Part shown: positions 2 to 12,645 of the stretch, piece by piece
Position numbering within the stretch: the first letter of the stretch is position 1
Layout of the letters: every line of letters begins with the position of its first letter
Assembly: GCA_023230245.1 (NCBI GenBank)
Contig: JALNXT010000016.1
Coordinates: 1-12,645 of the forward strand
DNA length: 12,645 nt
Source of the DNA: Candidatus Cloacimonadota bacterium
Lineage (GTDB): Bacteria; Cloacimonadota; Cloacimonadia; Cloacimonadales; Cloacimonadaceae
Reading direction: 5' to 3'
Notes under the pieces: generated by a model
The model's input: the letters and a program-made list of their open reading frames with translations, nothing else
Told to the model about the DNA's origin: nothing
Database searches by the model: none
Made by a program: the position numbers and the translations under genes

Positions 2-316
2 ACCCGGATCTACGGAGCAGACGATGTCGTCTACTCACCGGCAGCTGATGCGGCCATCAAAGATATCGAAGTTCTCGGAAGAAGCGGTCTTCCTATCTGC
101 ATGGCAAAGACCCAGTACTCGCTCTCCGATGATCCTAATAAACTCGGCAGACCGAAGAACTTTGTTATTAACGCAGCAACGGTTCGGCTTTGTAATGGTG
201 CTGGATTTATCGTTGTCGAGACTGGAGACATTATGACGCTCCCGGGACTGCCGGCAGTTCCTGCAGCTTGTTCGATTGACGTAAACAATGATGGATATAT
301 CTCCGGTCTTTTCTAA
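2..316 (+). CDS. fhs: formate--tetrahydrofolate ligase, C-terminal fragment (5' end lies outside the window)
   Basis: Frame-2 translation from position 2 is stop-free to the TAA at 314-316. It reads ...[102 protein letters not shown]. This is the conserved C-terminus of formyl-THF synthetase ([10 protein letters not shown](L/F)SDDP ... GAGF(I/L)V ... TG(D/E)IMTMPGLP ... IDV ... G(L/I)F). The track's 101..316 ORF is the M-initiated tail of the same frame. Confidence 0.85.
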
Positions 317-387: not shown

Positions 388-493
388 GCATTTTCCGGCA
401 TCGAAAGACAGGCAAGATTTGGCTAGTATTGTGCATGTGAGTTTCCATGTTCTGCTGCTTCCATGTAATGTTCAGCTACATGTAATGCCATCT

Positions 494-1681
494 TTACACT
501 TCACCACACTGATTGTTCCATTGTTCGTATCGCTCAAGCATAATTTTTGTCATCGGTGAACGTATCTTCAGAAAAGCCTCACGAAAATCATCATCTACAA
601 GAGGGGTCGTCTGCAAACTTCGGCTTTTAAGCTCTTCAAATGGAAGTTCAGCCATTTTGTAGAGATCCGGATTCACCTTGCGGATCATCGTCCAGATCGC
701 CTGCTGACAGAAGTTAGAAAGATCACGTCCCGAATAGAGCATCTCCACACATTTTTCTGAAATTCTGTCCAGAGAAACCTCTGAGATGTCCATACCCTTT
801 GTCTGGATCTTTATGATCTCTTTACACGCATTCTGATCCGGAAGAGGGACATAGATCCGCCGTGGGAATCGGGATAAAACTGCCGTATCAAGATCCCACG
901 GGGTATTTGTGGCTGCAAGAGTGAGGAGAAGCTGAGCGCTTTTCTTGTCGGAAAGCCCATCCAATTCTGTAAGGAGGCTGGAGAGGACTTTGCGCGTCGC
1001 CTCGTTTGTTTCCCCGTCTCTGGACTGACTGAGAGCATCGAACTCATCAATGAACACGATTGATGGAGAGTGATCTCTTGCTGAGTTGTAGAGACTGGAG
1101 ATGAGTTTTGAAGATTCACCGAAATATTTTGAGAGCACACTCTCCAATTTCACATCAAAGAACGTTGCATGCAGACTTCCTGCAGACGCTGCCGCAAGAA
1201 GAGTTTTACCGGTCCCGGGAGGTCCAAAGAGAAGAATGCCTTTCCAGGGTTTGATGGACTCGGGTTTTTGCAGACCGGCGATCACTACCGTTTCCATCAT
1301 CAGTTTTTTTACAGAATCAAGCCCGCCGATATCGGACCATTTGACATTGGAGGTCGTTATCAGAGAGGCAGCTTTCCGGCTGATTTTATTTTCCTCTTCT
1401 TTCTCGGTTTCATTATGAGAGGTCAGGGATGGTTTTTGTCTTGACCTCGTTTTTCCAGATGAAACTCTCTCCCATTTCTCAGCTCGTTCGAGATATTCTC
1501 TTTTGTTTGAAAGATTCATGTTTGCAAGTTCATGATAGAACTTCGCGATCTCTGCCGCTTTTTTTCTTGCTCCGGGAAGGTCATTTTTCTCAATCAGGGA
1601 TGAATATTCTACGGAGGCTTTTTTCAGGGCATCATACAGAGGGCCGCTTAAATCGATTTTCATCGGAGTTTCCTCCCGCAT
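494..1681 (-). CDS. Vps4/CdvC-like AAA+ ATPase with N-terminal MIT-like helical domain (meiotic clade); probable true start at ATG 1663
   Basis: Walker A ILLFGPPGTGKTLLA. Pore-loop LSKYFGESSKLISSLY (Vps4: VSKWMGESEKLVKQLF). Walker B IVFIDEFDAL. Second region of homology ATNTPWDLDTAVLSRFPRRIYVPLPD (Vps4: [26 protein letters not shown]). Vps4-specific C-terminal helix DFREAFLKIRSPMTKIMLERYEQWNNQCGE (Vps4: [32 protein letters not shown]). N-terminal 3-helix region LYDALKKASVEYSSLIEKNDLPGARKKAAEIAKFYHELANM is MIT-like. GGGAGG (1677-1672, minus strand) sits 8 nt upstream of the second ATG (1663). Confidence 0.9.
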   Translation of the reverse strand: MREETPMKIDLSGPLYDALKKASVEYSSLIEKNDLPGARKKAAEIAKFYHELANMNLSNKREYLERAEKWERVSSGKTRSRQKPSLTSHNETEKEEENKISRKAASLITTSNVKWSDIGGLDSVKKLMMETVVIAGLQKPESIKPWKGILLFGPPGTGKTLLAAASAGSLHATFFDVKLESVLSKYFGESSKLISSLYNSARDHSPSIVFIDEFDALSQSRDGETNEATRKVLSSLLTELDGLSDKKSAQLLLTLAATNTPWDLDTAVLSRFPRRIYVPLPDQNACKEIIKIQTKGMDISEVSLDRISEKCVEMLYSGRDLSNFCQQAIWTMIRKVNPDLYKMAELPFEELKSRSLQTTPLVDDDFREAFLKIRSPMTKIMLERYEQWNNQCGEV

Positions 1682-2517
1682 TTATTACAATAGTGTTGAT
1701 CTTCCTGAGTCGGTGCCCCACAAAAAGAGCATGTTTCCGTCTTACATATACGTGAAAGGATACCTGTTGGTTTTACATCCCCGGGATTTTGCTCTTCGGA
1801 TCTTTGGATGATTTGTTCGTTTGGAACAGTCCATCCAGTACCGGGCTCTCCCATTATTATCGGACGATTCTGTATTGCGTCATCCGTTGCCTGATTTCCT
1901 CCGTTATTTATCGGTCCTTTATTATCACCAAAAATAATCGGTGCATTGTTATCTCCTATAATAACTACACCCCGGTTGGGTGTTCCATTACTTGGATGGG
2001 CCATCTCTATTTTATGTGCCTTTGCGAAAAACAAATCAGCTTCGATCAGAGGGATCGCGTTTCTCCCATATTTGCTTCCGATCGCATTCTTCAGAGCTGT
2101 TTTTAAGGCTTCTTCGGCGAGTACATATTCATCCATCCGGATGAGTGTTCGCCCTTTCCAATGCCAGGCGACAACAGACTGTCTGGTGATCTGAATACTT
2201 TTATCATAATACGCAAGCGCCAGATCGTATTTTTTCAGATAGTGATACGCACGTCCCGCCCCATGATATGCCCATGCGTGATGTCGATCGATTTTTATTG
2301 CATTCTCAAAACAGTTGAGAGCATCAGAATATTTTCCTAAGTCAAGAAGGCATTCGCCTTTCCCGTGCAGAGCGACGTAGGGTCTTTGCTTTCGTACAAT
2401 TGCTTTATCGAAAGCATCGATCGCTTCTTCATATTTTCCCTGATGTTTGCATTTCCAGCCAAGTTGTTCGTAATTGATACCTGACGTGTGGGTCGTACGA
2501 CGATGGTGGGTACTCAT
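1660..2517 (-). CDS. TPR-repeat protein with a central Gly/Asn-rich 'IGDN' repeat segment and a C-terminal zinc ribbon
   Basis: 285 aa. The N-terminal approximately 170 aa contain at least 4 TPR-like 34-mers (W/Y-x-G-x-A ... Y-x-x-A-L-x-x-F/Y-x-K-A-I, e.g. AWAYHGAGRAYHYLKKYDLALAYYDKSIQI). The middle segment is GVVIIGDNNAPIIFGDNKGPINNGGNQ. The C-terminal ribbon is CKTETCSFCGAPTQEDQHYCNKCGRKLR (CxxC-x12-CxxC). The ATG at 2517-2515 overlaps the upstream TGA (TGATG). Its own TGA (1662-1660) overlaps the downstream ATG (ATGA). Confidence 0.8.
   Translation of the reverse strand: MSTHHRRTTHTSGINYEQLGWKCKHQGKYEEAIDAFDKAIVRKQRPYVALHGKGECLLDLGKYSDALNCFENAIKIDRHHAWAYHGAGRAYHYLKKYDLALAYYDKSIQITRQSVVAWHWKGRTLIRMDEYVLAEEALKTALKNAIGSKYGRNAIPLIEADLFFAKAHKIEMAHPSNGTPNRGVVIIGDNNAPIIFGDNKGPINNGGNQATDDAIQNRPIIMGEPGTGWTVPNEQIIQRSEEQNPGDVKPTGILSRICKTETCSFCGAPTQEDQHYCNKCGRKLR
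1672..1677 (-). promoter_or_regulatory. Shine-Dalgarno GGGAGG for the AAA ATPase (second ATG at 1663)
   Basis: Minus strand reads TAATAAATGCGGGAGGAAACTCCGATGA. GGAGG, an 8-nt spacer, then ATG. The same ATG overlaps the upstream TGA stop as ATGA. Confidence 0.5.
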
Positions 2518-3083
2518 CAGTCATCAGCTCCTAAGAAAACCTTCAACTCCTTGTCCATTCTGCCTTGCACAAACGTCACAACATCACCATATCCCCGAAG
2601 TGTGATCAGAAGTTTTGTTTCTCCATCATTATTTGTCAGAGAAACGTCTATCCCCACCTGTCCTTTCTTCGTGTATGCCGTATATGCTTTGATCCCCTGT
2701 TTTGTTCCTTCGAACGAAGCCCCGAGTTTATTCATTATATAATTGAGAAATTTATCGATCGCTGCTGCATCCATAGAGGATGAATATTTCAAATGCATGG
2801 TTTGCTCCGTGATCTCCGGAGAATAAGCATCTCCTGCAAAAACATGAACGGACCCATCTCCAACACTCAAACGGGAATAAAGGTCATCCAAAAACTCATC
2901 AATATCCCCATTATCGAAATGAATAATCGTTCCCTTTGGTTTATGTATATTGGCCTTATCCTTCCAGCGTTCAATAGCGTAGTCTATCCGTTTACGCTCC
3001 GCATCGGACTGATAATCTACCAAAATCAGATAGTCCATATTAAATAAGGGATATGTTTTCAGGCTATATATCTCTATCACCAT
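2517..3083 (-). CDS. hypothetical protein (188 aa); first gene of the minus-strand operon
   Basis: Clean ORF with ATG at 3083-3081 and codon usage like its neighbours. It ends TGA at 2519-2517, overlapping the TPR gene start by 1 nt. The N-terminal segment MDYLILVDYQSDAERKRIDYAIERWKDKANIHKPKGTIIHFDNGDIDEFLDDLYSRLSVGDGSVHVFAG has a beta-alpha-beta-beta-alpha-beta periodicity reminiscent of the Cas2/VapD-like ferredoxin fold. This is inference only; no confident family assignment is possible. Confidence 0.6.
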   Translation of the reverse strand: MVIEIYSLKTYPLFNMDYLILVDYQSDAERKRIDYAIERWKDKANIHKPKGTIIHFDNGDIDEFLDDLYSRLSVGDGSVHVFAGDAYSPEITEQTMHLKYSSSMDAAAIDKFLNYIMNKLGASFEGTKQGIKAYTAYTKKGQVGIDVSLTNNDGETKLLITLRGYGDVVTFVQGRMDKELKVFLGADD

Positions 3084-3176
3084 ATTGGATATTGTATTTT
3101 ATGGTTATTATATTTATTCTCCATTTTGGAGAAATATTTATATCGATGAAAAACCAATGAAATCCTTGTGAGAAAG
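3084..3176. promoter_or_regulatory. AT-rich divergent promoter region with TATA-like boxes for both operons
   Basis: 93-bp gene-free, approximately 80% A+T spacer between divergent starts (3083 minus, 3177 plus). TTATTATATTTATT at 3107-3120 lies about 27-30 nt from the minus ATG (a leaderless mRNA is plausible). ATATTTATATC at 3133-3143 lies about 38 nt before the plus ATG. Confidence 0.35.
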
Positions 3177-3779
3177 ATGGAACTGAAAAATCTGTTCAAA
3201 AAAAGTAATACGATCGACAAACTCAAGATCATCGAACTCCAGGAGGAGGAACTCAGACTCAAAAGCAGGATCAACCGTCTCAGAAAGGAGATCGATGTTA
3301 TTGAAAAAGACAAAAAATGCCTTTTTAATGAGGGTATAGGAGCTGATCTGATCAAGAAAAAGATGATCGCACAGGAGTTAAAACAGCTTGATATGAGCGG
3401 CAAACTCAAAATCAAGAACTTCCTGACCTTACACAAACAGTACATGTTTGTATCCAACCTCATCATCATCAAAAAGTATCAGCGGGATTTGCAGACCACA
3501 CAGGTCTGGAACAAAATCCAGAGCCTTTCTCCTGAGAACTTCGAGTCGTCCCTCATCAAAGTCAACTTGTCCGGAAAAGGTTTTGAGAATGTTCTCGACG
3601 ATCTCAACCGTATTTTTGCACTTGACATCACGGATTCTGATTCCGATGTTGACGAAGCAGAAAAGCAGATGTTTGACATCTGGAACAGTGTTGAAGCGGG
3701 AAATCTTGACGTGAGCGATGCAGAGAATCTTATCTCAATAGAGAAAGAAATTGAAAAGTCCCTGGAGAAAGGTGACTGA
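3177..3779 (+). CDS. coiled-coil protein, ESCRT-III (Snf7/CdvB) / PspA-superfamily-like; the track's 3168 start is a GTG, so the ATG at 3177 is preferred
   Basis: Approximately 200 aa, predicted all-helical, with a basic N-terminus (KKSNTIDKLKIIELQEEELRLKSRINRLRKEIDVIEKDKK) and an acidic C-terminus (DITDSDSDVDEAEKQMFDIWNSVEAGNLDVSDAENLISIEKEIEKSLEKGD). The core EGIGADLIKKKMIAQELKQLDMSGKLKIKNFLTLHKQ parallels the Snf7 helix-2/3 pattern (KKGNKDAAKILAKQLVRLRKQ...YASKAQLESVSMQL). The C-terminal amphipathic helix ENLISIEKEIEKSL resembles a MIM1 motif. Genomic linkage to a Vps4-like ATPase supports the call. Confidence 0.6.
   Translation: MELKNLFKKSNTIDKLKIIELQEEELRLKSRINRLRKEIDVIEKDKKCLFNEGIGADLIKKKMIAQELKQLDMSGKLKIKNFLTLHKQYMFVSNLIIIKKYQRDLQTTQVWNKIQSLSPENFESSLIKVNLSGKGFENVLDDLNRIFALDITDSDSDVDEAEKQMFDIWNSVEAGNLDVSDAENLISIEKEIEKSLEKGD
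3771..3775 (+). promoter_or_regulatory. Shine-Dalgarno GGTGA for the small membrane protein gene
   Basis: GGTGA-ctgaa-ATG(3781). The SD sits inside the last codons of the upstream gene (stop TGA 3777-3779). The same GGTGA-type SD precedes the ATGs at 4178 and 8593. Confidence 0.5.
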
Positions 3780-3780
3780 A

Positions 3781-4170
3781 ATGTTTGAGATGACTGATGT
3801 TTCAATAGATTGGATACTTTCATTAATATTATTTCTCATCATTATTTTTGGAATCATCGCCATATGTGCTGTATTCAAGGAAAAAAACAAAAAACGTGAG
3901 ACTGAGAAAAGAAACCTACTTTCGGCAATGTTTGCGGCGACGTTCACCATGGAAGAAGATGAAACCGAAGAGGAATATTCCAAGAGAATTCACACAGAAG
4001 TCGACATTTACCTCAGGGAACAGGAAGACAAAATCTGGAACGAGGCAAAAGAGGAATATAGAAACCTGTTCGGGAAGAAAAAAACGTGCGATTCATGCAG
4101 TGATGAAACTGAGGCTAAAATCCCCTGCGTAACTTGCGTGAACGCTTGCGAGGAGAGGATTACAACATAG
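3781..4170 (+). CDS. small membrane protein with N-terminal TM helix and C-terminal Cys4-type zinc ribbon (YdjG/YdjH-like accessory?)
   Basis: The track's ORF starts at TTG 3751 and overlaps the upstream gene. The ATG at 3781 (MFEMTDVSIDW) has an SD and begins 1 nt after the upstream stop. TM helix ILSLILFLIIIFGIIAICAVF is followed by a charged stretch KEKNKKRETEKR (N-out/C-in). The acidic middle is EEDETEEEY. The C-terminus is CDSCSDETEAKIPCVTCVNAC (CxxC-x9-CxxCxxxC). Confidence 0.7.
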   Translation: MFEMTDVSIDWILSLILFLIIIFGIIAICAVFKEKNKKRETEKRNLLSAMFAATFTMEEDETEEEYSKRIHTEVDIYLREQEDKIWNEAKEEYRNLFGKKKTCDSCSDETEAKIPCVTCVNACEERITT

Positions 4171-4177
4171 GTGAACA

Positions 4178-4723
4178 ATGTCAATCATAAATAGCAAAAA
4201 AAGCCTTGAAAAAATAAGTTTAGGGGATTTGCGCATGGCAGAGGCAGAGCTCATTTTTTCTGTTTCAACTATTCATGAAAAAATAATGGAAATTGACAAA
4301 AAGATCGATGCAGAATTGATGACCTGCACAAAAGTTCTCTCTGAGTTTGAAACGGTTTCGGCAGCGAAAAAGATTTCAAGTCTGATATGTGAGAGAAAAG
4401 AACTCATTAAAAGGCTTCAAATTGCAGAAAAGAAGAAATTAGCGGTTGCGCGCCTTATTTGGATCAAGGATAATATAACTATTATTTCAGCACGAAAATC
4501 AGATATTTTCAGAAATCTTGACCTTGATGAAATAACTGCAAAACGTGATGAGATCGAAATTAAAACCGAAATTGAAGAGATGAAGCTTGATAAAATTCTT
4601 GATGAATCTGGGGCTTCATCAGGTGAATACAAAAAGATTCTTGAAATTGTAAAATCGGTAATTCTAGACGATGAAAGCGTGAAAATAGCCAAAGTTGAGA
4701 TAGAATGTCTGAGTTTGAAGTAA
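4178..4723 (+). CDS. coiled-coil protein (181 aa), possible second ESCRT-III/PspA-like paralog
   Basis: AGGTGA at 4169-4174 lies 3 nt before the ATG. The sequence is highly helical and charged with heptad periodicity (LSEFETVSAAKKISSLICERKELIKRLQIAEKKKLAVARL...EIEIKTEIEEMKLDKILDES) and has an acidic C-terminal tail. There is no enzyme motif. Similarity to ESCRT-III is weaker than for 3177-3779. Confidence 0.7.
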   Translation: MSIINSKKSLEKISLGDLRMAEAELIFSVSTIHEKIMEIDKKIDAELMTCTKVLSEFETVSAAKKISSLICERKELIKRLQIAEKKKLAVARLIWIKDNITIISARKSDIFRNLDLDEITAKRDEIEIKTEIEEMKLDKILDESGASSGEYKKILEIVKSVILDDESVKIAKVEIECLSLK

Positions 4724-4775
4724 GGATTAAATGCATTAAAGAGAAAGTAACTGATTAGTGTGATGGAATTTTATC

Positions 4776-6407
4776 ATGTTTAACAGGAAAATAAAATGTA
4801 ATTTTTGCGGTGCTGAAAATCCTGCGGGGGGCCATTTCTGTATCATATGCGGAAAATCAATCGAGGGAAAATCAAACAGCACATGTCCCATATGTGGAGC
4901 TGCTATTGTTGCAGGGGCGTCATTTTGTGGTAAATGTGGTGCAAAACTCTTGGACTCGCCGCAAACAACCCGAACTGCCGACACCTCCAAAGAGCTTGGT
5001 AAAAATCGTCAGTGGATGAGAATGCCGGGAGATCTTGCCCAGAGATTTGAACTCTCGGATATCAAAGGATTTTTTGCAAAACAGGTAACCGTTGAACAGG
5101 GAACAAAAGCCATTCTTCTTCAAGGAGGGATTTACAAAGGAACACTTCCTGCAGGCGTATACAATCTTGGAAACATCTTTGATACCATCGGTCAGTTGAG
5201 ACTTGATGAGCGAACAACGGTTATTCTTGTTGATGCCGGAGAGATTCCTCTTACCTTCATGATTCCAAAAGGTGAGTTACGTTCAAAGAATGCCATATCT
5301 GTCGAAGCTGCAGGTATATTGACGGCGCAGATCAAAGATCCGGTCGCTTTTCTTGAAAACTATCTGAAACGTGAACAGCACGTGAGTCTTATGGACATTG
5401 AGAACTGCATTCATGCAGAACTCAAAAATATTGCCCAGAATAAAATATCCCAATATAATATAGAAGAACTGTACGGAAATGCAGTTCTCAGTCAGGAATT
5501 GAGTAATGAATTCAAGAAAAATCTGAATGCAAACTTTGGTAATAAGGGTATAGAGATTTCTCATCTGAACTGTGTGGGCTTTGATGAAGGAGCCTGGAAA
5601 GAGGTTCTTGGAGCACGCGAAAGTATGCAGATCGAAGTGGGCAAAGCCAAAGCAGAGTATGAAAAGAAAGCTTACTTGCGTGAAGCAGGAACGAAAGATG
5701 CTGTTGGTCAGATTAATGCGGACCATACCATACAATCACTTCATGAGGGGCTTGAAAATCAAAGAATCAATACTGCCTTAAATCACGACCTTGCCCGTGA
5801 TTCTGCAAAACATGACCATGAACTGGAAAAAGACAGCAAGGAGATCAAGCAGCATCTGGAATTCAAAAGACAGAACAAGGCGATCAAACGGGAGGATGAG
5901 AGACAAAAGATCGCAAATCTCTCAGAAGCACCGATCGAAGTTCTCATTTCTCTGGTCGATGATCAGACGGTCGGCGCCCTTGTTCAACTTGAACTTGCTA
6001 AGAGAGCAAACAGCCTGACGCCGGAACAAATCCTTGCGATGAATGCAAAAGACCCGAAGGCAGCTGCCGAGGCATTGGCCGCTCGTGCCAAACTCGAATC
6101 TGTTGAGCAATTGAACGAACTTAGAATCAAGGATCAACAGACCTTCAACGTAACGATGCAGAGTCAATACAAGGAGAATGCCGAGCAGATGAAGGAGGTA
6201 ATGAATTCCGCACTGAATGCTATGGGAAATACGGCGACCGCCCGCTCTACTGCGCAAAATCCAGGGACCACCGTCGTTTCAGGAGGAATGGGGATGCCAG
6301 TTGTCATGAGTAATAATCCTCAATCGAAGAATATATGTCCACATTGTGGTGAAGTCGTGTCGCAAGAGGATTGGTTCTGTCCAAGTTGTAGGAAAAAGTT
6401 GTATTAA
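4776..6407 (+). CDS. double zinc ribbon - SPFH/Band-7 (flotillin/YqiK- or Band_7_1-like) - long coiled coil - C-terminal zinc ribbon protein
   Basis: N-terminus: CNFCGAENPAGGHFCIICG + CPICGAAIVAGASFCGKCG (two CxxC-x9/10-CxxC ribbons). Residues approximately 95-270: FFAKQVTVEQGTKAILLQGGIYKGTLPAGVYNL...TTVILVDAGEIPLTF...ISVEAAGILTAQIKDPVAFLENYL...ELYGNAVLSQELSNEFKKNL...GIEISHLNCVGFD. This matches the SPFH pattern (beta-rich N-part, xDPxxF, GIEIxxVxI at the end). Residues 270-480: Ala/Glu/Lys-rich coiled coil (flotillin-like EA-rich). C-terminus: CPHCGEVVSQEDWFCPSC. Confidence 0.85.
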   Translation: MFNRKIKCNFCGAENPAGGHFCIICGKSIEGKSNSTCPICGAAIVAGASFCGKCGAKLLDSPQTTRTADTSKELGKNRQWMRMPGDLAQRFELSDIKGFFAKQVTVEQGTKAILLQGGIYKGTLPAGVYNLGNIFDTIGQLRLDERTTVILVDAGEIPLTFMIPKGELRSKNAISVEAAGILTAQIKDPVAFLENYLKREQHVSLMDIENCIHAELKNIAQNKISQYNIEELYGNAVLSQELSNEFKKNLNANFGNKGIEISHLNCVGFDEGAWKEVLGARESMQIEVGKAKAEYEKKAYLREAGTKDAVGQINADHTIQSLHEGLENQRINTALNHDLARDSAKHDHELEKDSKEIKQHLEFKRQNKAIKREDERQKIANLSEAPIEVLISLVDDQTVGALVQLELAKRANSLTPEQILAMNAKDPKAAAEALAARAKLESVEQLNELRIKDQQTFNVTMQSQYKENAEQMKEVMNSALNAMGNTATARSTAQNPGTTVVSGGMGMPVVMSNNPQSKNICPHCGEVVSQEDWFCPSCRKKLY

Positions 6408-6433
6408 ATAATTGATTATGATGGAATGAAAAG

Positions 6434-8530
6434 ATGTCTGTAGAAAAAGAAGAGTGTCCAAATTGTGGGGGCAGTGTTGATATAAATCCAATCTCGGGGG
6501 AGGGGACCTGTCCTAGATGTAGAACCAAAGTAAGACAAACTAAAAAATATATTGACAGTGATAAATGGGGTCGTATTGTCATTGACAAAACGGGTGATTT
6601 TCAGAATTCTCTGAGCCGAATAAAAAAAGAAATTCTCTTAGGCAATTATTCCAATGCATATATAGCTTGCCTTGATGCTCTAAAAATAAATGCAAATAAT
6701 TATGAACTCGATTTTTACTATGCATTTTCTGATTATCTTGGAAATGGAAATGAGATGCATTTTCTCCAGTTCTTAATCCAGAAGGAAGTGCAGGTTGATG
6801 TTGAAAAACTTGATGAAATAATGAATATAATGCTAGGTGTCAAGTATACTACTAGCATTCTTACACAGATTGATCTATATATAAATAAACTAGAAATACC
6901 TGAAGCAATTAAAAAGAAATATTTGACTAAACTTACTCTTCTTGCATTTGATCAATACGATTTTCCACGAAAAGTGCATCTAGCATTGTCAGAACAGAAT
7001 AGCAGAAATCAGGCTGAAATGTTTACTTTGATTGACAATCAAATTTGTGACTATCAAGAATATCAATCGATCATACCTCTAATTGAGAAAGCAATTAAGA
7101 ATAATATTATCTTCTCAGAATCATTATCGATTTTTTTTGAGGGAGCAATTCGACAACTTCTATTAGTCAAAATATCTTATGAAGATTATGTAGATTATCA
7201 TTATATAGAGAAAAGTTTAAAAAAACTGAAAGATTTATATTCACTTAGCGATCTGGATAGTAGTTTCAGCAACTATAACATTAAACAAATGTTTGAAAAC
7301 GCCGACTCTACACTTTTGAGTATTAGAGACTCTATTGAAATACACATTCTGGAGCGAAAACGGCTAAGAACGAAAGAACTTCGCAGGCAAAGAGGAAAAA
7401 GAATGGGCAAAGCTCTGAAAATTCTCATCATTTTGGCTGTTCTGGGTGTGGTAATTTTCGCGGGATATAATGTTATTAGTAATTTCATTAATAATCAACA
7501 AAACACAGAAATAACATATCCACTTGGTTCTATTGAAAATCCTTATATTATTACAACACCTGATGAACTACAAAATATGAGAAGTTCAGCTAGTTATGTT
7601 CTTGGTAATGATATTGATTTGAATGGTTATTCTTGGACACCCCTTTGTAACGAAAAGTATCCATTTAAAGGACACTTGGATGGAAATGGATATACAATCT
7701 ATAATTTAAAGGTTTCAAATTATGAAAGTAACGGCCTATTTGCATATGTAGGATCTGGAGCAACTCTTACCAATCTTATTTTTGAAAAGGCAGAAATTAC
7801 TGGTGCACCGGGCATTAGTAAATATGTTGCAGTCATTGCTGGCTGTTCAAAAGGAGAGATTTCTAATTGTAAAGTATTTAATTCTTATGTATCCGGTGGA
7901 GGAAGTCTCTTTGGTGGACTTGTAGGGTTAAATGATGTGGGAACAATTCGTTCATGCTCATTTAACGGCAATGTAATCAATGAAGCTGTTTTTATTAAAA
8001 ATGATAATTTCAATTCTGCAACTGGAGGTATTTTAGGTTCAAATACATATGGAGAAATTTCAAACTGCAAGGCATCAGGCACAATAACTGGACTTGGTTA
8101 TGTGGGAGGTATTGTTGGAGTGGTTACATCTGCTAAGTCAATAATATCAGAATGTTCATTTTCTGGAATTGTAAATGCAGAATTCAGTCCCTACCCGTAT
8201 CCAGTAATGACAAGGATAGCATATACAGCTCCAGCAGGAGGTGCCAAATCAGATGCGGGAGGAATTGCTGGTTGCATTTCTGGTGGTGGAGTGGTTACTG
8301 ACTGTACTTCTTCTGGAACCATTTCAAGCAATAAAAATAAGTTTAGTATTATGACCGGAAATGCAGGTGGGATTCTTGGTTCAATTTCGTATAGTTCAAG
8401 TGGTACGGTGAGAAAGTGTACATCTTCCACACAGGTATACAAATCATCTTATTCTAATGCAGATGGTATTTGTCCTGACACTGATGCTACACTTTCTGGA
8501 AATACTTTTACTGGAGCCATAGTACAATGA
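6434..8530 (+). CDS. membrane-anchored surface protein: N-terminal cytoplasmic zinc ribbon + helical domain, one TM helix, extracellular GLUG-motif repeat (beta-helix-like) domain
   Basis: CPNCGGSVDINPISGEGTCPRC at residues 8-29. Approximately 290 aa helical, Asn/Ile/Lys/Tyr-rich region. The basic stretch RKRLRTKELRRQRGKRMGK immediately precedes the TM helix ALKILIILAVLGVVIFAGYNVI (N-in). After it come repeated G-x-(I/L/V)-x-G units with interspersed N/S-C residues: LFGGLVGLNDVGTIRSCSF, TGGILGSNTYGEISNCKASG, GYVGGIVGVV, AGGIAGCISGGGVVTDCTSSG, AGGILGSISYSSSGTVRKCTSS. These are typical of the GLUG motif family. Confidence 0.85.
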   Translation: MSVEKEECPNCGGSVDINPISGEGTCPRCRTKVRQTKKYIDSDKWGRIVIDKTGDFQNSLSRIKKEILLGNYSNAYIACLDALKINANNYELDFYYAFSDYLGNGNEMHFLQFLIQKEVQVDVEKLDEIMNIMLGVKYTTSILTQIDLYINKLEIPEAIKKKYLTKLTLLAFDQYDFPRKVHLALSEQNSRNQAEMFTLIDNQICDYQEYQSIIPLIEKAIKNNIIFSESLSIFFEGAIRQLLLVKISYEDYVDYHYIEKSLKKLKDLYSLSDLDSSFSNYNIKQMFENADSTLLSIRDSIEIHILERKRLRTKELRRQRGKRMGKALKILIILAVLGVVIFAGYNVISNFINNQQNTEITYPLGSIENPYIITTPDELQNMRSSASYVLGNDIDLNGYSWTPLCNEKYPFKGHLDGNGYTIYNLKVSNYESNGLFAYVGSGATLTNLIFEKAEITGAPGISKYVAVIAGCSKGEISNCKVFNSYVSGGGSLFGGLVGLNDVGTIRSCSFNGNVINEAVFIKNDNFNSATGGILGSNTYGEISNCKASGTITGLGYVGGIVGVVTSAKSIISECSFSGIVNAEFSPYPYPVMTRIAYTAPAGGAKSDAGGIAGCISGGGVVTDCTSSGTISSNKNKFSIMTGNAGGILGSISYSSSGTVRKCTSSTQVYKSSYSNADGICPDTDATLSGNTFTGAIVQ

Positions 8531-8592
8531 GGGTTTATTACAACACTCATTTCATTGTATTTAGAATCAACGAAAATTATTGGTGAATAAAT

Positions 8593-9540
8593 ATGATAAT
8601 AAGCAAAATAATAAAATTTGAAGGACCAACAGATGTCTTCATCTGGAAACATCCCATCGTAATATTGACGCACCAGATGCAATTATATGTAGAGAACAAT
8701 TATTATGCAATTCTCTTTCGCGATGGGGAAATTCTAGATATTTTCACATCAGGACATTATACTCTAAATGCATCTACTACTCCATTGTTAAAAAAGGTTC
8801 TTCCACACCAATTAAGCAGAAATGTATCTTTTCAGTGTGATGTATATTTTGTAAACTGTTTTACATCATTTAATTTCTTGTGGGGCACTCCCTCTCCAAT
8901 TCCAATGCAAGACCCACTATATGGTTTATTTGTTAATGTTCGAGCAAATGGACAGATGAAAATCAAAGTTTCAGATTCAGCAAAACTTGTAAAAAGACTT
9001 GCAGGTGATGTGTCTTCATTTATTCACGATAAATTACAGGATTATCTGCGAGATATGATAATGATGAAAATTGTAGTAGGAATATCTCAGATAATGATAA
9101 ATGATAATGTCAGTTTCCTAGATGTTTCTGCTAGATTATTTGATATATCAGAGGCAATTCACATAAGTATTGCACGAGATTTATATGAATGTGGCCTTTC
9201 AGCGGTATATTTTAATGTAAATTCAATTACTATCCCTAGTTCTGACTATGCACAATTGAAAGAAGCAAAAGAGACAGCTGTGTCTATAAAAACAATTGCT
9301 GATGCTGAAGCATATAGTATCATTGCTAAAGGAGAGGCAGAAAAAACAGTTCGACCATCAGTAATTAATATTGGAAATGTAGCTTCTGGTGGACAGGTAG
9401 TAGTGGGAGATAACTATGGGAATATTGTTGGGGCAGACGGGATAATAAATAGACCGTCAAACTCAGTCATTCAAGGTGATGAACGGAAAAAAGCTAAGAT
9501 GAATGAAGGTAGTCTGGATTCTGATTTATTTGAGGAGTGA
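8593..9540 (+). CDS. SPFH-superfamily protein of the Band_7_1 (B. subtilis YdjI-like) type with a Gly/Asn-rich C-terminal 'IGDN' repeat tail
   Basis: GGTGA at 8582-8586 lies 6 nt before the ATG. The N-terminus IIKFEGPTDVFIWKHP...LYVENNYYAILFRDGEILDIFTSGHYTLNASTTPLL matches the YdjI-family signature (W(K/R)HP ... L-V-x-E-x-Q-x-A-V/I-x-F-x-DG ... G-x-Y-x-L-x-T-x-N-x-P-L). Downstream matches: VYFVNCFTSFNFLWGTPSPIPMQDP, VRANGQMKIKVSD, YECGLSAVYFNVNSITIPSSDYAQL. The C-terminal tail is VINIGNVASGGQVVVGDNYGNIVGADGIINRPSNSVIQGDE. Confidence 0.85.
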   Translation: MIISKIIKFEGPTDVFIWKHPIVILTHQMQLYVENNYYAILFRDGEILDIFTSGHYTLNASTTPLLKKVLPHQLSRNVSFQCDVYFVNCFTSFNFLWGTPSPIPMQDPLYGLFVNVRANGQMKIKVSDSAKLVKRLAGDVSSFIHDKLQDYLRDMIMMKIVVGISQIMINDNVSFLDVSARLFDISEAIHISIARDLYECGLSAVYFNVNSITIPSSDYAQLKEAKETAVSIKTIADAEAYSIIAKGEAEKTVRPSVINIGNVASGGQVVVGDNYGNIVGADGIINRPSNSVIQGDERKKAKMNEGSLDSDLFEE

Positions 9541-10096: not shown

Positions 10097-11224
10097 CTAT
10101 GAGATGGAAATTAGAATGGATACTAAAGTAGTAATAATTGTTAGAGCAATTATCAACGACCAGACGTTTACTGCACTGTCGGACAATATATCCGTCATTT
10201 GACCATCGAAATATACCATATCCCTATTTATATAGTTTAATTTATTATGCTTGATGGATTCAGATATGAAACCCAACTCATTAATCATTTTTAAATTATA
10301 AATTCCAATACTTTCATAGAATGTGATTTTACGCTTTTTATTTACTCTTGAGAAAATAATAGCAGTGGCAATAATATCTGCGATAAGATAAATCGGGAAT
10401 AAACCAAGTAACATAGGATTTTGTGAAATGATTGCCATGATCAGAATCATTATAAAAATAATGATATGCACTATACTTTTCTTGGGAAGACAAGAAATAG
10501 AATAGTCATAATGTTTCTTTATGAGATAGTAGTTTGCTTTTCCATAATGCCACACCCGTTTTCTCATTTGAGTTCGGTGAGACCATGTATCTTTAGCATG
10601 ATAAACAATTCCTGTTTTTGAACATCTAATTTTATATCCTTTTTTAGTGAGGCGCAGCCCTAAGTCTACATCTTCTCCACCCGGTTTATTTGGAAAATCT
10701 GTATCAAATTCGCCAATTTCGGTAAAGAGATTTTTTCTTATAGAGAAATTAGCAGTTGGTGTCCAAGGGACTTCATATAGCCACCCAGGTAATTTAAAAC
10801 ATACAACAAATGGTGATTGGTCAACAACATGCCAATATCGATTTTCTTCCCCAGTAAATATTAATAAGCCGGCAACACCCCCAATTGAATCATCAGAATA
10901 CATTTTATAATGTTCTGTTAGCAGATTTGGCGAAGCAACACAATCTGAATCCAGATATAATATTATGTCATACTGGGCTTTTGAAGACCCATAATTTCGT
11001 TTGCCTGATACAGAAGGCGTAAAAAAATACTTTTGTGCACTGTATTTTTCACATAAAGAATCAATAATTTTTGTTTCATCTTCAGAACTATCATCAATTA
11101 TCAGTACTTCAGAGGAACCTGTAAAATTATTTCTTGCAATTAATACACTTTGTAATAACTTCTCCAAGTGTAATAACCTTCCTTTGGTTGCAATAACAAT
11201 ACTTATTCCATTTAGTTTTTTCAT
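10097..11224 (-). CDS. glycosyltransferase family 2 (GT-A fold) with C-terminal multi-TM region
   Basis: ISIVIATKGRLLHLEKLLQSVL...EVLIIDDSSED...YLDSDCV (DxD-type), with GGVAGLL and acceptor-side ED motifs. The C-terminal approximately 130 aa are hydrophobic (IVHIIIFIMILIMAIISQNPMLLGLFPIYLIADIIATAIIF ... VWSLIIALTIITTLVSILISIS). The ATG at 11224 overlaps the upstream TGA (ATGA). Confidence 0.85.
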   Translation of the reverse strand: MKKLNGISIVIATKGRLLHLEKLLQSVLIARNNFTGSSEVLIIDDSSEDETKIIDSLCEKYSAQKYFFTPSVSGKRNYGSSKAQYDIILYLDSDCVASPNLLTEHYKMYSDDSIGGVAGLLIFTGEENRYWHVVDQSPFVVCFKLPGWLYEVPWTPTANFSIRKNLFTEIGEFDTDFPNKPGGEDVDLGLRLTKKGYKIRCSKTGIVYHAKDTWSHRTQMRKRVWHYGKANYYLIKKHYDYSISCLPKKSIVHIIIFIMILIMAIISQNPMLLGLFPIYLIADIIATAIIFSRVNKKRKITFYESIGIYNLKMINELGFISESIKHNKLNYINRDMVYFDGQMTDILSDSAVNVWSLIIALTIITTLVSILISIS

Positions 11225-12360
11225 ATAACGACACCCTTTGTAAACAATACGAGAATAAAACTACACGTATATATCAAAACAAAAGATAATAGGAGCAATC
11301 CCATCCTTTTTGCATCATTTTTTAATTGAGCTTGAATTTGAAATGAATTAAACAACATACCTTTTAAAAAGACATCAAGATGCTTTTTCTGGATTGAAGT
11401 TTTTACTCTGAAAAATTCATATAATCCTGCGATACATTTTGAAAGCAGGTAATAAATTGGGTTTTTGAATTTATTCGATATACCATCAATCACATAATTT
11501 ACAATATTAATGCTCAAGCACCAAACTATTAATCCAATTAAAAAAATCCATGATTTCGTTATAAAACATGTAATTCCCCCAATTATTAGAGCTAGACAAA
11601 ATATAACATAATTCTTTGGTATTATCAACTTATATAATTCAGGATGTATTGTACAAATCATTACTTCCATGGATCCCCACCGTTTAGCTCGATCAATTAT
11701 TGCTGAAAAATTATTCCAAGTATTTCGTGAGTGATATGTTACTGCATCCGGAGCAGAACCAATCATATAACCTGCTTTTGTAACTCGGTATGATAGTTCT
11801 AAATCATCCCCGCCAAGTTTATATGGTAAATTTTCTTCAAACATACCAATTTCCTCCAGCACATTTTTCTTAAATGATACATTATTTCCGATGGTCCAGG
11901 AATGAAATGGATATTTTTTTGCAAAGGAAAACGCATCAACAAATGGGGTGATAGATAGAATTTTCCACCAGAAAGTCATTGGCCCTTCAAAAACAGTCAA
12001 GCCAAGAATCCCCCCAATCTTAAATTGGAGAGGCATATTTTGATATGAGGATGCGTAATTATCCAATAATCCCTCTTTTACTCTCACATCAGAGTCAATA
12101 AAAATGATATAGGGATATTTTGCACTTTTTATGCCCAAATTCCTCTTTTGACGAACACTGTCTGTACCATGGATGTATGTTGCATCATATTTTTTACATG
12201 CAGATAGTATCGTTTCTTTTTCTCTACCCTCACTACTATCAATGATTAGAACTTCAGTTGCTCCAAAACTATATGTTTTTCGCTCATCATACAGACTTTC
12301 GAGAAGCCTATCAACTAATTCTGATCGATTCCATGTTGGAATAATAATTGAAAAGTCCAT
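11221..12360 (-). CDS. glycosyltransferase family 2 (paralog of the downstream gene) with C-terminal multi-TM region
   Basis: FSIIIPTWNRSELVDRLLESL...EVLIIDSSEGRE...IFIDSDV...GGILGL, plus C-terminal TM helices (NYVIFCLALIIGGITCFITKSWIFLIGLIVWCLSINIV ... LLLLSFVLIYTCSFILVLF). The track's start at 12372 is a GTG. The ATG at 12360 (MDFSIIIPTWN) is preferred. Confidence 0.85.
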   Translation of the reverse strand: MDFSIIIPTWNRSELVDRLLESLYDERKTYSFGATEVLIIDSSEGREKETILSACKKYDATYIHGTDSVRQKRNLGIKSAKYPYIIFIDSDVRVKEGLLDNYASSYQNMPLQFKIGGILGLTVFEGPMTFWWKILSITPFVDAFSFAKKYPFHSWTIGNNVSFKKNVLEEIGMFEENLPYKLGGDDLELSYRVTKAGYMIGSAPDAVTYHSRNTWNNFSAIIDRAKRWGSMEVMICTIHPELYKLIIPKNYVIFCLALIIGGITCFITKSWIFLIGLIVWCLSINIVNYVIDGISNKFKNPIYYLLSKCIAGLYEFFRVKTSIQKKHLDVFLKGMLFNSFQIQAQLKNDAKRMGLLLLSFVLIYTCSFILVLFTKGVVI

Positions 12361-12610
12361 TTTTTCAGACACATTTAATCCAACTGACCGTTTAAAAGCA
12401 TTGTGACTTCATTACATAAGTACCAACACCCTTCACACTGACAACACAACATTTTTTCTCGACATCTATTCATTTTATCTCCAGTCCAAATTTCTTTTAA
12501 ACTTCTTTCTCCCAATGTTCGGTAGTACCTCAATTTTTCTGTAAATTTTTTGAGGCTCGTATTCTTAGCAGTAATTACGATGTTAGACTACAAAAATATA
12601 CTGTTGTGAA

Positions 12611-12645
12611 CCGGGGGGCGGAGGGGCGACTCCGGCGCGGAGCCC
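12611..12645. other. GC-rich structured element truncated by the window edge (possible 5' or 3' end of a stable RNA gene)
   Basis: 35 nt at more than 80% G+C (CCGGGGGGCGGAGGGGCGACTCCGGCGCGGAGCCC) follow about 230 bp of 25-30% G+C non-coding DNA. It contains the hairpin CTCCG-GCG-CGGAG. It is too short and too truncated to classify. It does not fit a tRNA T-arm. Confidence 0.2.

Follow-up and report, generated by a model that had tools for sequence, protein, structure and literature searches.

A GLUG beta-helix membrane protein encoded beside an archaeal ESCRT-like gene cluster: a candidate receptor for an adjacent soluble SPFH protein

The window analysed here, the whole stretch of 12,645 nucleotides (nt) of contig JALNXT010000016.1, encodes on its plus strand at 6434..8530 a protein of 698 amino acids (aa), running from an ATG start to a TGA stop. 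It is deposited at NCBI as MCK9308877.1 with the annotation 'hypothetical protein' and is referred to in the following as the GLUG protein. Two independent contigs from ENA and Logan (L001 and L002) encode the identical 698-aa protein. Its gene stands between the genes of two SPFH proteins, the last member of an archaeal-type ESCRT-like cluster on the upstream side and a soluble protein of the Band_7_1 family on the downstream side. The GLUG protein is a one-of-a-kind, singleton fusion of two known kinds of modules, i.e., a zinc-ribbon anchor as present in the membrane partners of SPFH proteins and a GLUG beta-helix.

The segment aa 327-348 (7412..7477; Kyte-Doolittle 2.7, KD19 2.71) is the sole strongly hydrophobic segment of the protein and is predicted to form a single transmembrane (TM) helix, which is preceded by a basic juxtamembrane stretch (aa 307-326, 7352..7411). 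The 20 residues before the helix contain 11 K/R, the 20 residues after it contain none. From the single TM helix, the charge asymmetry according to the positive-inside rule and the zinc ribbon it follows that the protein should adopt an N-in/C-out orientation, with aa 1-326 cytoplasmic and the last 350 aa outside. The original prediction, made from the letters of the window, had proposed the same topology, with a zinc ribbon and a helical domain inside and the GLUG domain outside; the TM helix it had placed at nt 7397-7465 (aa 322-344) overlaps with the helix reported here but extends into the basic stretch. If the ectodomain is surface-exposed or periplasmic would depend on the host; if a bacterial host has an outer membrane, the domain would be periplasmic. 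A hydrophobicity scan of the plus strand of the window identified only the GLUG protein and a 139-aa protein as membrane-spanning.

The ectodomain contains a GLUG-type right-handed beta-helix (aa 362-670, 7517..8443), assigned by Pfam, alignment, AlphaFold2 (AF2) and Foldseek, a fold shared by IgA1-protease N-domains and adhesin-like proteins of the cell surface, and it ends in a Ser/Thr-rich C-terminal tail (aa 671-698, 8444..8527) that is modelled by AF2 with low confidence. The Pfam family Glug (PF07581; cut-off 20.5 bits) matches the ectodomain (aa 349-698) in five stretches with 58-60 bits. The beta-helix is composed of an N-terminal cap with the motif NPYxIxT...DIDL...F.G.LDGNGY and approximately six subsequent repeat rungs of the type GG(I/L)xG / NC; in alignment A1 the residues G365, P370, F411, G413, G417 and G610 are invariant and Y371, D393, I394 and D416 nearly invariant. 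With an alignment of GLUG modules as input, AF2 modelled a right-handed beta-helix with values of the predicted local distance difference test (pLDDT) of 89-98 over most of aa 362-580. The best Foldseek match was the putative IgA1 protease BACOVA_03286 (3n6z, E 3e-8); IgA1 proteases of streptococci and Gemella came next, so that the fold expected for this domain beforehand is borne out by the model as well as by the structural matches. The regular spacing of Cys residues pointed out earlier is real (C479, C508, C545, C574, C624 and C662; spacing 29-50), but these residues belong to the conserved positions of the GLUG repeat rung (x-I-x-N-C-x) and constitute no separate feature. Homologues of the ectodomain align over aa 364-582 only (29-39% identity) and belong to the multidomain GLUG surface proteins, both bacterial and archaeal. 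A genome-contig scan with the GLUG protein gave no matches. The N-domain of M26 IgA1 proteases and BACOVA_03286 (PDB 3n6z, 7uvk, 6xjb) share with the window protein the Pfam match, the cap motif, the rungs and 29-39% identity over aa 364-582. In contrast to these modules, the window protein lacks a partner domain, be it a protease, another catalytic domain or an adhesive one, it is anchored by an N-terminal TM helix following a large cytoplasmic domain, with neither signal peptide nor cell-wall anchor, and its last ~115 aa are divergent. As a side observation, the ectodomain (7478-8527, aa 349-698) contains no N-x-S/T sequon, compared to 6.2 +/- 2.1 expected from its composition (9% Asn, 20% Ser+Thr), which is odd for an archaeal extracellular protein encoded next to glycosylation genes.

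The cytoplasmic part starts with a zinc ribbon of the CxxC...CxxC type (C8-x2-C11-x14-C26-x2-C29, 6455..6520), already recognized in the original prediction, which is matched weakly by Pfam zinc-ribbon families (E 0.02-0.1). Together with one TPR-like helical hairpin the ribbon forms an N-module (aa 1-100, 6434..6733), and this is the only cytoplasmic part with detectable relatives: an exhaustive phmmer search of 1.8 billion representatives retrieved the proteins P0028 and P0029, weakly and over aa 1-100 only. A profile built from these two proteins matches aa 1-100 of the GLUG protein with E 1.2e-15 in a database of 5,579 open reading frames (ORFs). The hairpin pattern common to the N-module and its relatives is IDK..DFQN....K......GNY..AY......AL.IN..N.E, and the hairpin aligns with a TPR of the neighbouring TPR protein (E 0.008). 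No homologues of aa 100-306 were found in the exhaustive search, and word-indexed searches with the full-length protein and the N-domain returned no homologue of the cytoplasmic domain except the identical protein. The all-helical region aa 55-306 (6596..7351) is an orphan, and ~220 aa of such helices lie between the TPR-like hairpin and the basic stretch. AF2 places only helices over aa 55-354, in agreement with the helical region of ~290 aa proposed before, but the confidence of this model is low (pLDDT 36-76); Foldseek returned only weak TPR/14-3-3 matches, and as modelled the region is possibly an alpha-solenoid.

The most informative example is the relative P0029, a tail-anchored protein of 304 aa that starts 12 nt downstream of a Band_7_1 gene (Band_7_1 profile match E 2e-39). 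It shares with the GLUG protein the homologous first 100 aa, the order of zinc ribbon, helices and TM helix and the position of its gene directly beside a Band_7_1 gene. It differs in that its chain terminates with the TM helix, leaving no ectodomain, in that its gene lies downstream of the SPFH gene, while the GLUG gene lies upstream, and in that similarity past aa 100 is not significant. In its layout the GLUG protein corresponds to P0029 extended past the TM helix by a GLUG beta-helix. PF08271, the TFIIB-type ribbon family assigned to YdjG, matches P0028 and P0029 with E ~8e-5 and the GLUG protein with E 0.11.

The gene following the GLUG gene by 62 nt (8593..9540, plus strand) encodes an SPFH protein of the Band_7_1 type (PF13421, YdjI/SamI family; E 2e-32), the proposed cytoplasmic partner, which has no zinc ribbon and no TM helix (maximal Kyte-Doolittle value 1.28). 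Both genes are located on the same strand, both show a low GC content at third codon positions (GC3) and they co-occur on L001 and L002. The other SPFH protein of the window is likewise devoid of TM helices, and this supports a role of the GLUG protein as membrane anchor. In Bacillus subtilis, the Band_7_1 protein YdjI is soluble, and both its recruitment to the membrane and its localisation of the ESCRT-III homologue PspA depend on YdjG and YdjH (PMC8581546). YdjG carries an N-terminal zinc ribbon (PMC9239133), and SamG-SamH was described as a stress-sensor complex acting with SamI (bioRxiv 10.64898/2026.02.06.704340). The window resembles this YdjG/YdjH-YdjI (SamG/SamH-SamI) module of the pspA operon in that the gene of a TM-less Band_7_1 protein lies beside the gene of a zinc-ribbon-first membrane protein and in that genes of the ESCRT-III superfamily, putative ones in the window, are found in the same gene row. 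The GLUG protein has the N-terminal zinc ribbon followed by a TM helix that was looked for in members of the YdjG/SamG-like class. The likeness to YdjG would be one of layout. The GLUG protein combines the ribbon, long orphan helices, a single TM helix and a 350-aa outside part with a GLUG beta-helix in one protein. Furthermore, in contrast to the B. subtilis module, the window contains no YdjH-like multi-TM protein, its upstream coiled-coil proteins accompany a Vps4-type ATPase and are not PspA, and the host is probably an archaeon.

The association of Band_7_1 proteins with membrane proteins of this kind was assessed in 66 metagenome loci with Band_7_1 relatives and in 65 unrelated control loci by counting ORFs that encode an N-terminal zinc ribbon and a TM helix. 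This layout was found in 19 of the 53 ORFs of >=200 aa adjacent to Band_7_1 relatives and in 2 of the 867 control ORFs (Fisher p ~1e-23, a value that overstates the association because the loci are not phylogenetically independent). The 19 partners represent at least six unrelated families, several of them with sizeable extracytoplasmic parts, and one family has the order zinc ribbon-TPR-TIR-TPR-coiled coil-TM. The gene of P0031, the closest homologue of the window Band_7_1 protein (41% identity), overlaps at its start codon with the stop codon of the gene in front of it, which encodes a TIR-TPR-TM-RCC1-repeat protein with the same design of inside scaffold, TM helix and outside repeats as the GLUG protein. 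A metagenome scan with the window Band_7_1 protein alone gave no matches.

Based on these findings, the GLUG protein is proposed to be a YdjG-like membrane receptor that gained an extracellular GLUG beta-helix and serves the soluble SPFH protein encoded next to it, a reading whose chances we consider evenly balanced. Its cytoplasmic domain would dock the TM-less Band_7_1 protein at the membrane, and the beta-helix would bind some ligand of the envelope or the exterior. With the SPFH protein docked inside and the ligand bound outside, the pair could place, and perhaps regulate, SPFH assembly according to the contacts of the ectodomain. In this reading both genes arrived together in a low-GC block beside a pre-existing archaeal ESCRT-like cluster. 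Several observations weigh against this proposal. None of the other Band_7_1 neighbours in the 66 loci carries a GLUG domain, so the fusion is a singleton with a putative function. Most Band_7_1 relatives are accompanied by a downstream ~232-aa protein with four TM helices that is absent from the window. Since aa 100-306 are an orphan region with a poor model, no binding surface is visible there, and three profiles (A-C) of other zinc-ribbon partner families did not match the N-domain beyond the ribbon (E 0.04 to 36). P0028 is encoded on a contig of 1.8 kb on which no SPFH gene is visible. Finally, the adjacency of the GLUG and Band_7_1 genes may reflect co-transfer in an island instead of function.

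The GLUG gene starts at a boundary of composition and synteny (6408..6433). The nucleotide similarity to the Methanocorpusculum parvum XII locus stops at 6304, and in a step located exactly at 6407/6434 GC3 declines to 0.22, from 0.42 before the boundary and 0.42-0.55 in most cluster genes. GC3 amounts to 0.38-0.55 in five of the six conserved cluster genes, to 0.31 in the gene of a 181-aa protein and to 0.47 in a formate-tetrahydrofolate ligase fragment at the left edge of the window, whereas it is 0.22 in the GLUG gene, 0.23 in the Band_7_1 gene and 0.22-0.25 across both of these plus two glycosyltransferase genes. Because of this drop at its start, the GLUG gene belongs to a low-GC block together with the Band_7_1 gene and a variable glycan island. 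The two family-2 glycosyltransferases (10097..12372, minus strand; profile matches and GC3) form the start of this strain-variable island. L001 is 99.94% identical to the window and contains an additional 5.2 kb (L001 7187-12413) between window positions 12520 and 12521, encoding two radical-SAM proteins (one with a weak SPASM-domain match), an epimerase, an NTP-transferase and a UDP-glucose dehydrogenase, and this difference is a strain-level indel in the glycan island. A chimeric assembly at 6407/6434 is unlikely because independent assemblies cover the junction, L001 spanning it by ~1 kb and L002 by ~200 nt with 99.9-100% identity.

In 13 related Vps4/ESCRT-like loci, including the one of M. 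parvum, neither a GLUG domain nor a Band_7_1 gene was detected (tblastn, GLUG profile), and the M. parvum gene row stops at the gene of the SPFH-zinc-ribbon protein. The original prediction had placed the GLUG gene inside an ESCRT/SPFH operon and had suggested examining its co-occurrence with such genes in other genomes. The gene does lie between two same-strand SPFH genes with gaps of 26 and 62 nt, but it is located at the 3' edge of the cluster and past the composition break, and with its protein in 0 of the 13 related loci the idea of an integral part of an ESCRT-type operon did not hold. Because of this absence and of the GC3 break, the GLUG gene is placed outside the ESCRT-like system: it is a recent add-on beside the archaeal cluster and no conserved part of it.

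The surmised SPFH- and ESCRT-type character of the neighbourhood was supported by two SPFH proteins and an ATPase of apparent Vps4 type, and the nearest set of orthologs from a cultured organism is listed in the literature as an ESCRT system. Makarova et al. 2024 (PMC10936438) described archaeal systems of the ESCRT type that include an SPFH/coiled-coil/zinc-ribbon component, and the supplement of this study lists for M. parvum XII the Vps4 protein WP_095642221 (arCOG01307) and the SPFH 'ESCRT system component' WP_095642223 (arCOG15283), so that the context of the window is of a known system type. The last conserved gene of the cluster (4776..6407, plus strand) encodes an SPFH protein of the arCOG15283 type that contains double zinc ribbons as well as a coiled coil and has no TM helix (maximal Kyte-Doolittle value 1.33); BLASTP detected no paralogy between the two SPFH proteins of the window. 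The rest of the cluster (494..4723, both strands; profile matches, synteny) comprises on the minus strand the genes of a Vps4-like AAA ATPase (494-1681), a TPR and zinc-ribbon protein (1660-2517) and a 188-aa protein (2517-3083) and on the plus strand those of a coiled-coil protein of 203 aa with GTG start (3168-3779), the small TM protein of 139 aa (3751-4170) and a coiled-coil protein of 181 aa (4178-4723). The ATPase scores 187 bits with the NCBIfam model CdvC (cut-off 650) and 196 bits with CDC48, its best PDB matches are VAT/CDC48, and it is 80% identical to an M. parvum XII protein. A genome scan with the ATPase retrieved the same cluster in Methanocorpusculum, other Methanomicrobiales, Methanosarcina and Archaeoglobales. 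The M. parvum XII locus is collinear, with 81-83% nucleotide identity over window positions 484-3775 and 4777-6304. The genes at 494-6407 match the archaeal ESCRT system of the 'Meth_adaptin' type (arCOG01307 Vps4 plus arCOG15283 SPFH); the described system has neither a GLUG gene nor a second SPFH gene of the Band_7_1 type, whereas the window contains both.

As candidate ESCRT-III proteins, the coiled-coil proteins of 203 and 181 aa gave a PDB-profile match to CdvB with E 0.13 and a single-sequence AF2 model with pLDDT 51. They have no Pfam match, and hhalign comparisons with CHMP4B and Snf7 were not significant, leaving the paralogue N-terminus MGIFSKLFG and the gene context as the sole support for ESCRT-III membership. 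The middle stretch 3775-4777 shows no nucleotide similarity to M. parvum, and the second coiled-coil protein encoded there has 35% aa identity. The 139-aa protein has its TM helix at the N-terminus and a tail rich in Cys at the C-terminus, and the M. parvum locus lacks a corresponding gene. The cluster is directly adjoined by the 3'-terminal part of a formate-tetrahydrofolate ligase gene (window 2-316, E 4e-34 to PDB FTHFS C-termini), a flank that M. parvum does not have at this locus.

No oligo-T run is present in any plus-strand intergenic gap from 3168 to 9540. One near-consensus archaeal TATA box (TTTATATC) is located 31 nt upstream of the GTG start at 3168, and weak TATA-like boxes with two mismatches precede the GLUG gene (-31) and the Band_7_1 gene (-37). 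This arrangement of signals would be compatible with read-through plus internal promoters for the GLUG and Band_7_1 genes. The divergent intergenic region 3084-3167 contains an AT-rich box ~30 nt before the opposite gene on the minus strand, and the location of this box and of the TATA box ~30 nt before the starts suggests short-leader or leaderless transcripts. Scans for sigma-70 promoters and intrinsic terminators, bacterial signals that are not relevant to an archaeal host, remained at background.

The contig is labelled by NCBI as 'Candidatus Cloacimonetes bacterium', i.e., as belonging to a bacterial phylum. The host is nevertheless probably a Methanocorpusculum-like archaeon with a low-GC island, since the left half of the window is near-identical to M. 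parvum, the promoter is of archaeal type and the left flank has a GC content of 47-50%; the M. labreanum genome has a GC content of 50% (PMC3035222). ATPase genes with 88-93% identity are also present on short contigs assigned to Sphaerochaeta and Methanosarcinaceae bins. The conflict between the Cloacimonetes label and the M. parvum-like left half suggests mis-binning or inter-domain transfer.

Other explanations of the GLUG protein have to be weighed against its role as SPFH receptor. It could be a stand-alone adhesin-like or envelope-binding protein of a variable low-GC surface island, with the cytoplasmic domain as a mere anchor or an unrelated signalling end and with an accidental adjacency to the ESCRT and SPFH genes. 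This is rather unlikely in our view, although it agrees with the GC3 break at 6407/6434 and the continuation of the block into the glycosyltransferases, with the strain variability of the island seen in the L001 cassette missing from the window, with the multidomain surface proteins among the GLUG homologues and with the absence of the GLUG gene from all related ESCRT loci examined. In addition, Methanimicrococcus blatticola encodes 15 horizontally acquired membrane-bound GLUG proteins for which a role in adhesion was proposed (PMC9723798). However, typical GLUG adhesin-like proteins contain a signal peptide or a short anchor and no large cytoplasmic domain, and an adhesin would leave unexplained both the 326-aa cytoplasmic domain, the only relatives of which include P0029, encoded beside a Band_7_1 gene, and the general association of Band_7_1 with zinc-ribbon membrane proteins. 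The interpretation offered originally, a dedicated and co-transcribed component of the ESCRT machinery acting as cargo, adaptor or envelope sensor and directing budding or repair by Vps4/ESCRT-III, appears improbable. The location of the gene on the same strand 26 nt past the SPFH-zinc-ribbon gene, the gaps free of oligo-T runs from 3168 to 9540 and the only near-consensus TATA box upstream of 3168 are as expected for such a component, and published archaeal ESCRT loci include SPFH proteins and membrane-linked cargo or adaptors with ectodomains (PMC10936438). Against this stand the absence from 13/13 related loci, among them the M. parvum locus that is collinear up to the preceding gene, the composition break at the start codon and the coiled-coil neighbours, which were not confirmed as ESCRT-III (CdvB E 0.13, hhalign not significant, pLDDT 51).

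Two further possibilities concern the ectodomain and the zinc ribbon. The beta-helix could be a lyase- or hydrolase-like domain of a membrane-tethered enzyme that processes the glycan of the neighbouring glycosyltransferase island; the gene adjoins glycan genes, but no catalytic motif was identified in the ectodomain, and we regard this function as quite improbable. If the Cloacimonetes label of the contig is right, the layout of a cytoplasmic zinc-binding N-terminus, a single TM helix and an extracytoplasmic domain would also be that of a zinc-binding anti-sigma-factor-like transmembrane regulator of a bacterial host. Zinc-binding anti-sigma factors are defined by an H-x3-C-x2-C motif. This motif is absent from the GLUG protein, the metal site of which is a CxxC...CxxC ribbon, the window contains no gene of a sigma factor, and the flanking cluster is archaeal in type with an archaeal-style TATA box, which makes a regulator of this kind highly improbable.

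The proposed role as SPFH receptor is of interest since soluble Band_7_1 SPFH proteins need membrane receptors and the sole studied case is B. subtilis YdjG/H-YdjI (SamGHI). This system is thought to sense envelope stress, and a receptor with a recognisable beta-helix on the outside offers a way to ask what such modules detect. The position of the GLUG gene beside an archaeal cluster of Vps4/ESCRT-III/SPFH type provides a natural test of the bacterial logic of SPFH-to-ESCRT-III recruitment in archaea. The flanking of Band_7_1 genes by at least six unrelated zinc-ribbon membrane families, some with TIR domains or ectodomains, may be of wider use than the single gene studied here. A more far-reaching and doubtful idea is that the GLUG and Band_7_1 proteins constitute an outside-in coupling, in which the sensing of a ligand or a contact by the beta-helix nucleates an SPFH platform that feeds the methanogen Vps4/ESCRT-III-like machinery and triggers repair or budding at an external contact, e.g., a virus, a partner cell or a damaged S-layer. 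If true, this would be an archaeal receptor-to-ESCRT link made from a bacterial-type SPFH anchor module.

Some minor observations concern the Band_7_1 family in general. In gut and rumen metagenomes, zinc-ribbon-fused Band_7_1 proteins are flanked by the conserved ~232-aa protein with four TM helices (L085, L107, L118, L112 and L083, and ~27 loci with the gene of this protein) and also by zinc ribbon-TPR-TIR-TPR-coiled coil-TM proteins, and this recurrent module may be a stress or defence system. PADLOC gave no defence-system match beyond generic AAA matches. The tail of the window Band_7_1 protein (aa 255-286, 9355-9450, VVVGDNYGNIVGADGIINRP) resembles the linker of the TPR and zinc-ribbon protein (aa 183-218, VIIGDNNAPIIFGDNKGPIN...NRP), but the shared 'GDN' motif was discarded, the BLASTP match being not significant (E 2.7).

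As to other elements, a viral-contig scan gave no matches and there is hence no sign of a viral origin, and no tRNA or Rfam family was found in the window or the key loci. The window end cuts a GC-rich element (12601-12643) that consists of a CTCCG-GCG-CGGAG hairpin preceded by a AAAAATATAC box and has no Rfam match. The same hairpin element occurs at L010 2450-2492, ~1.7 kb from an 88%-identical ATPase gene.

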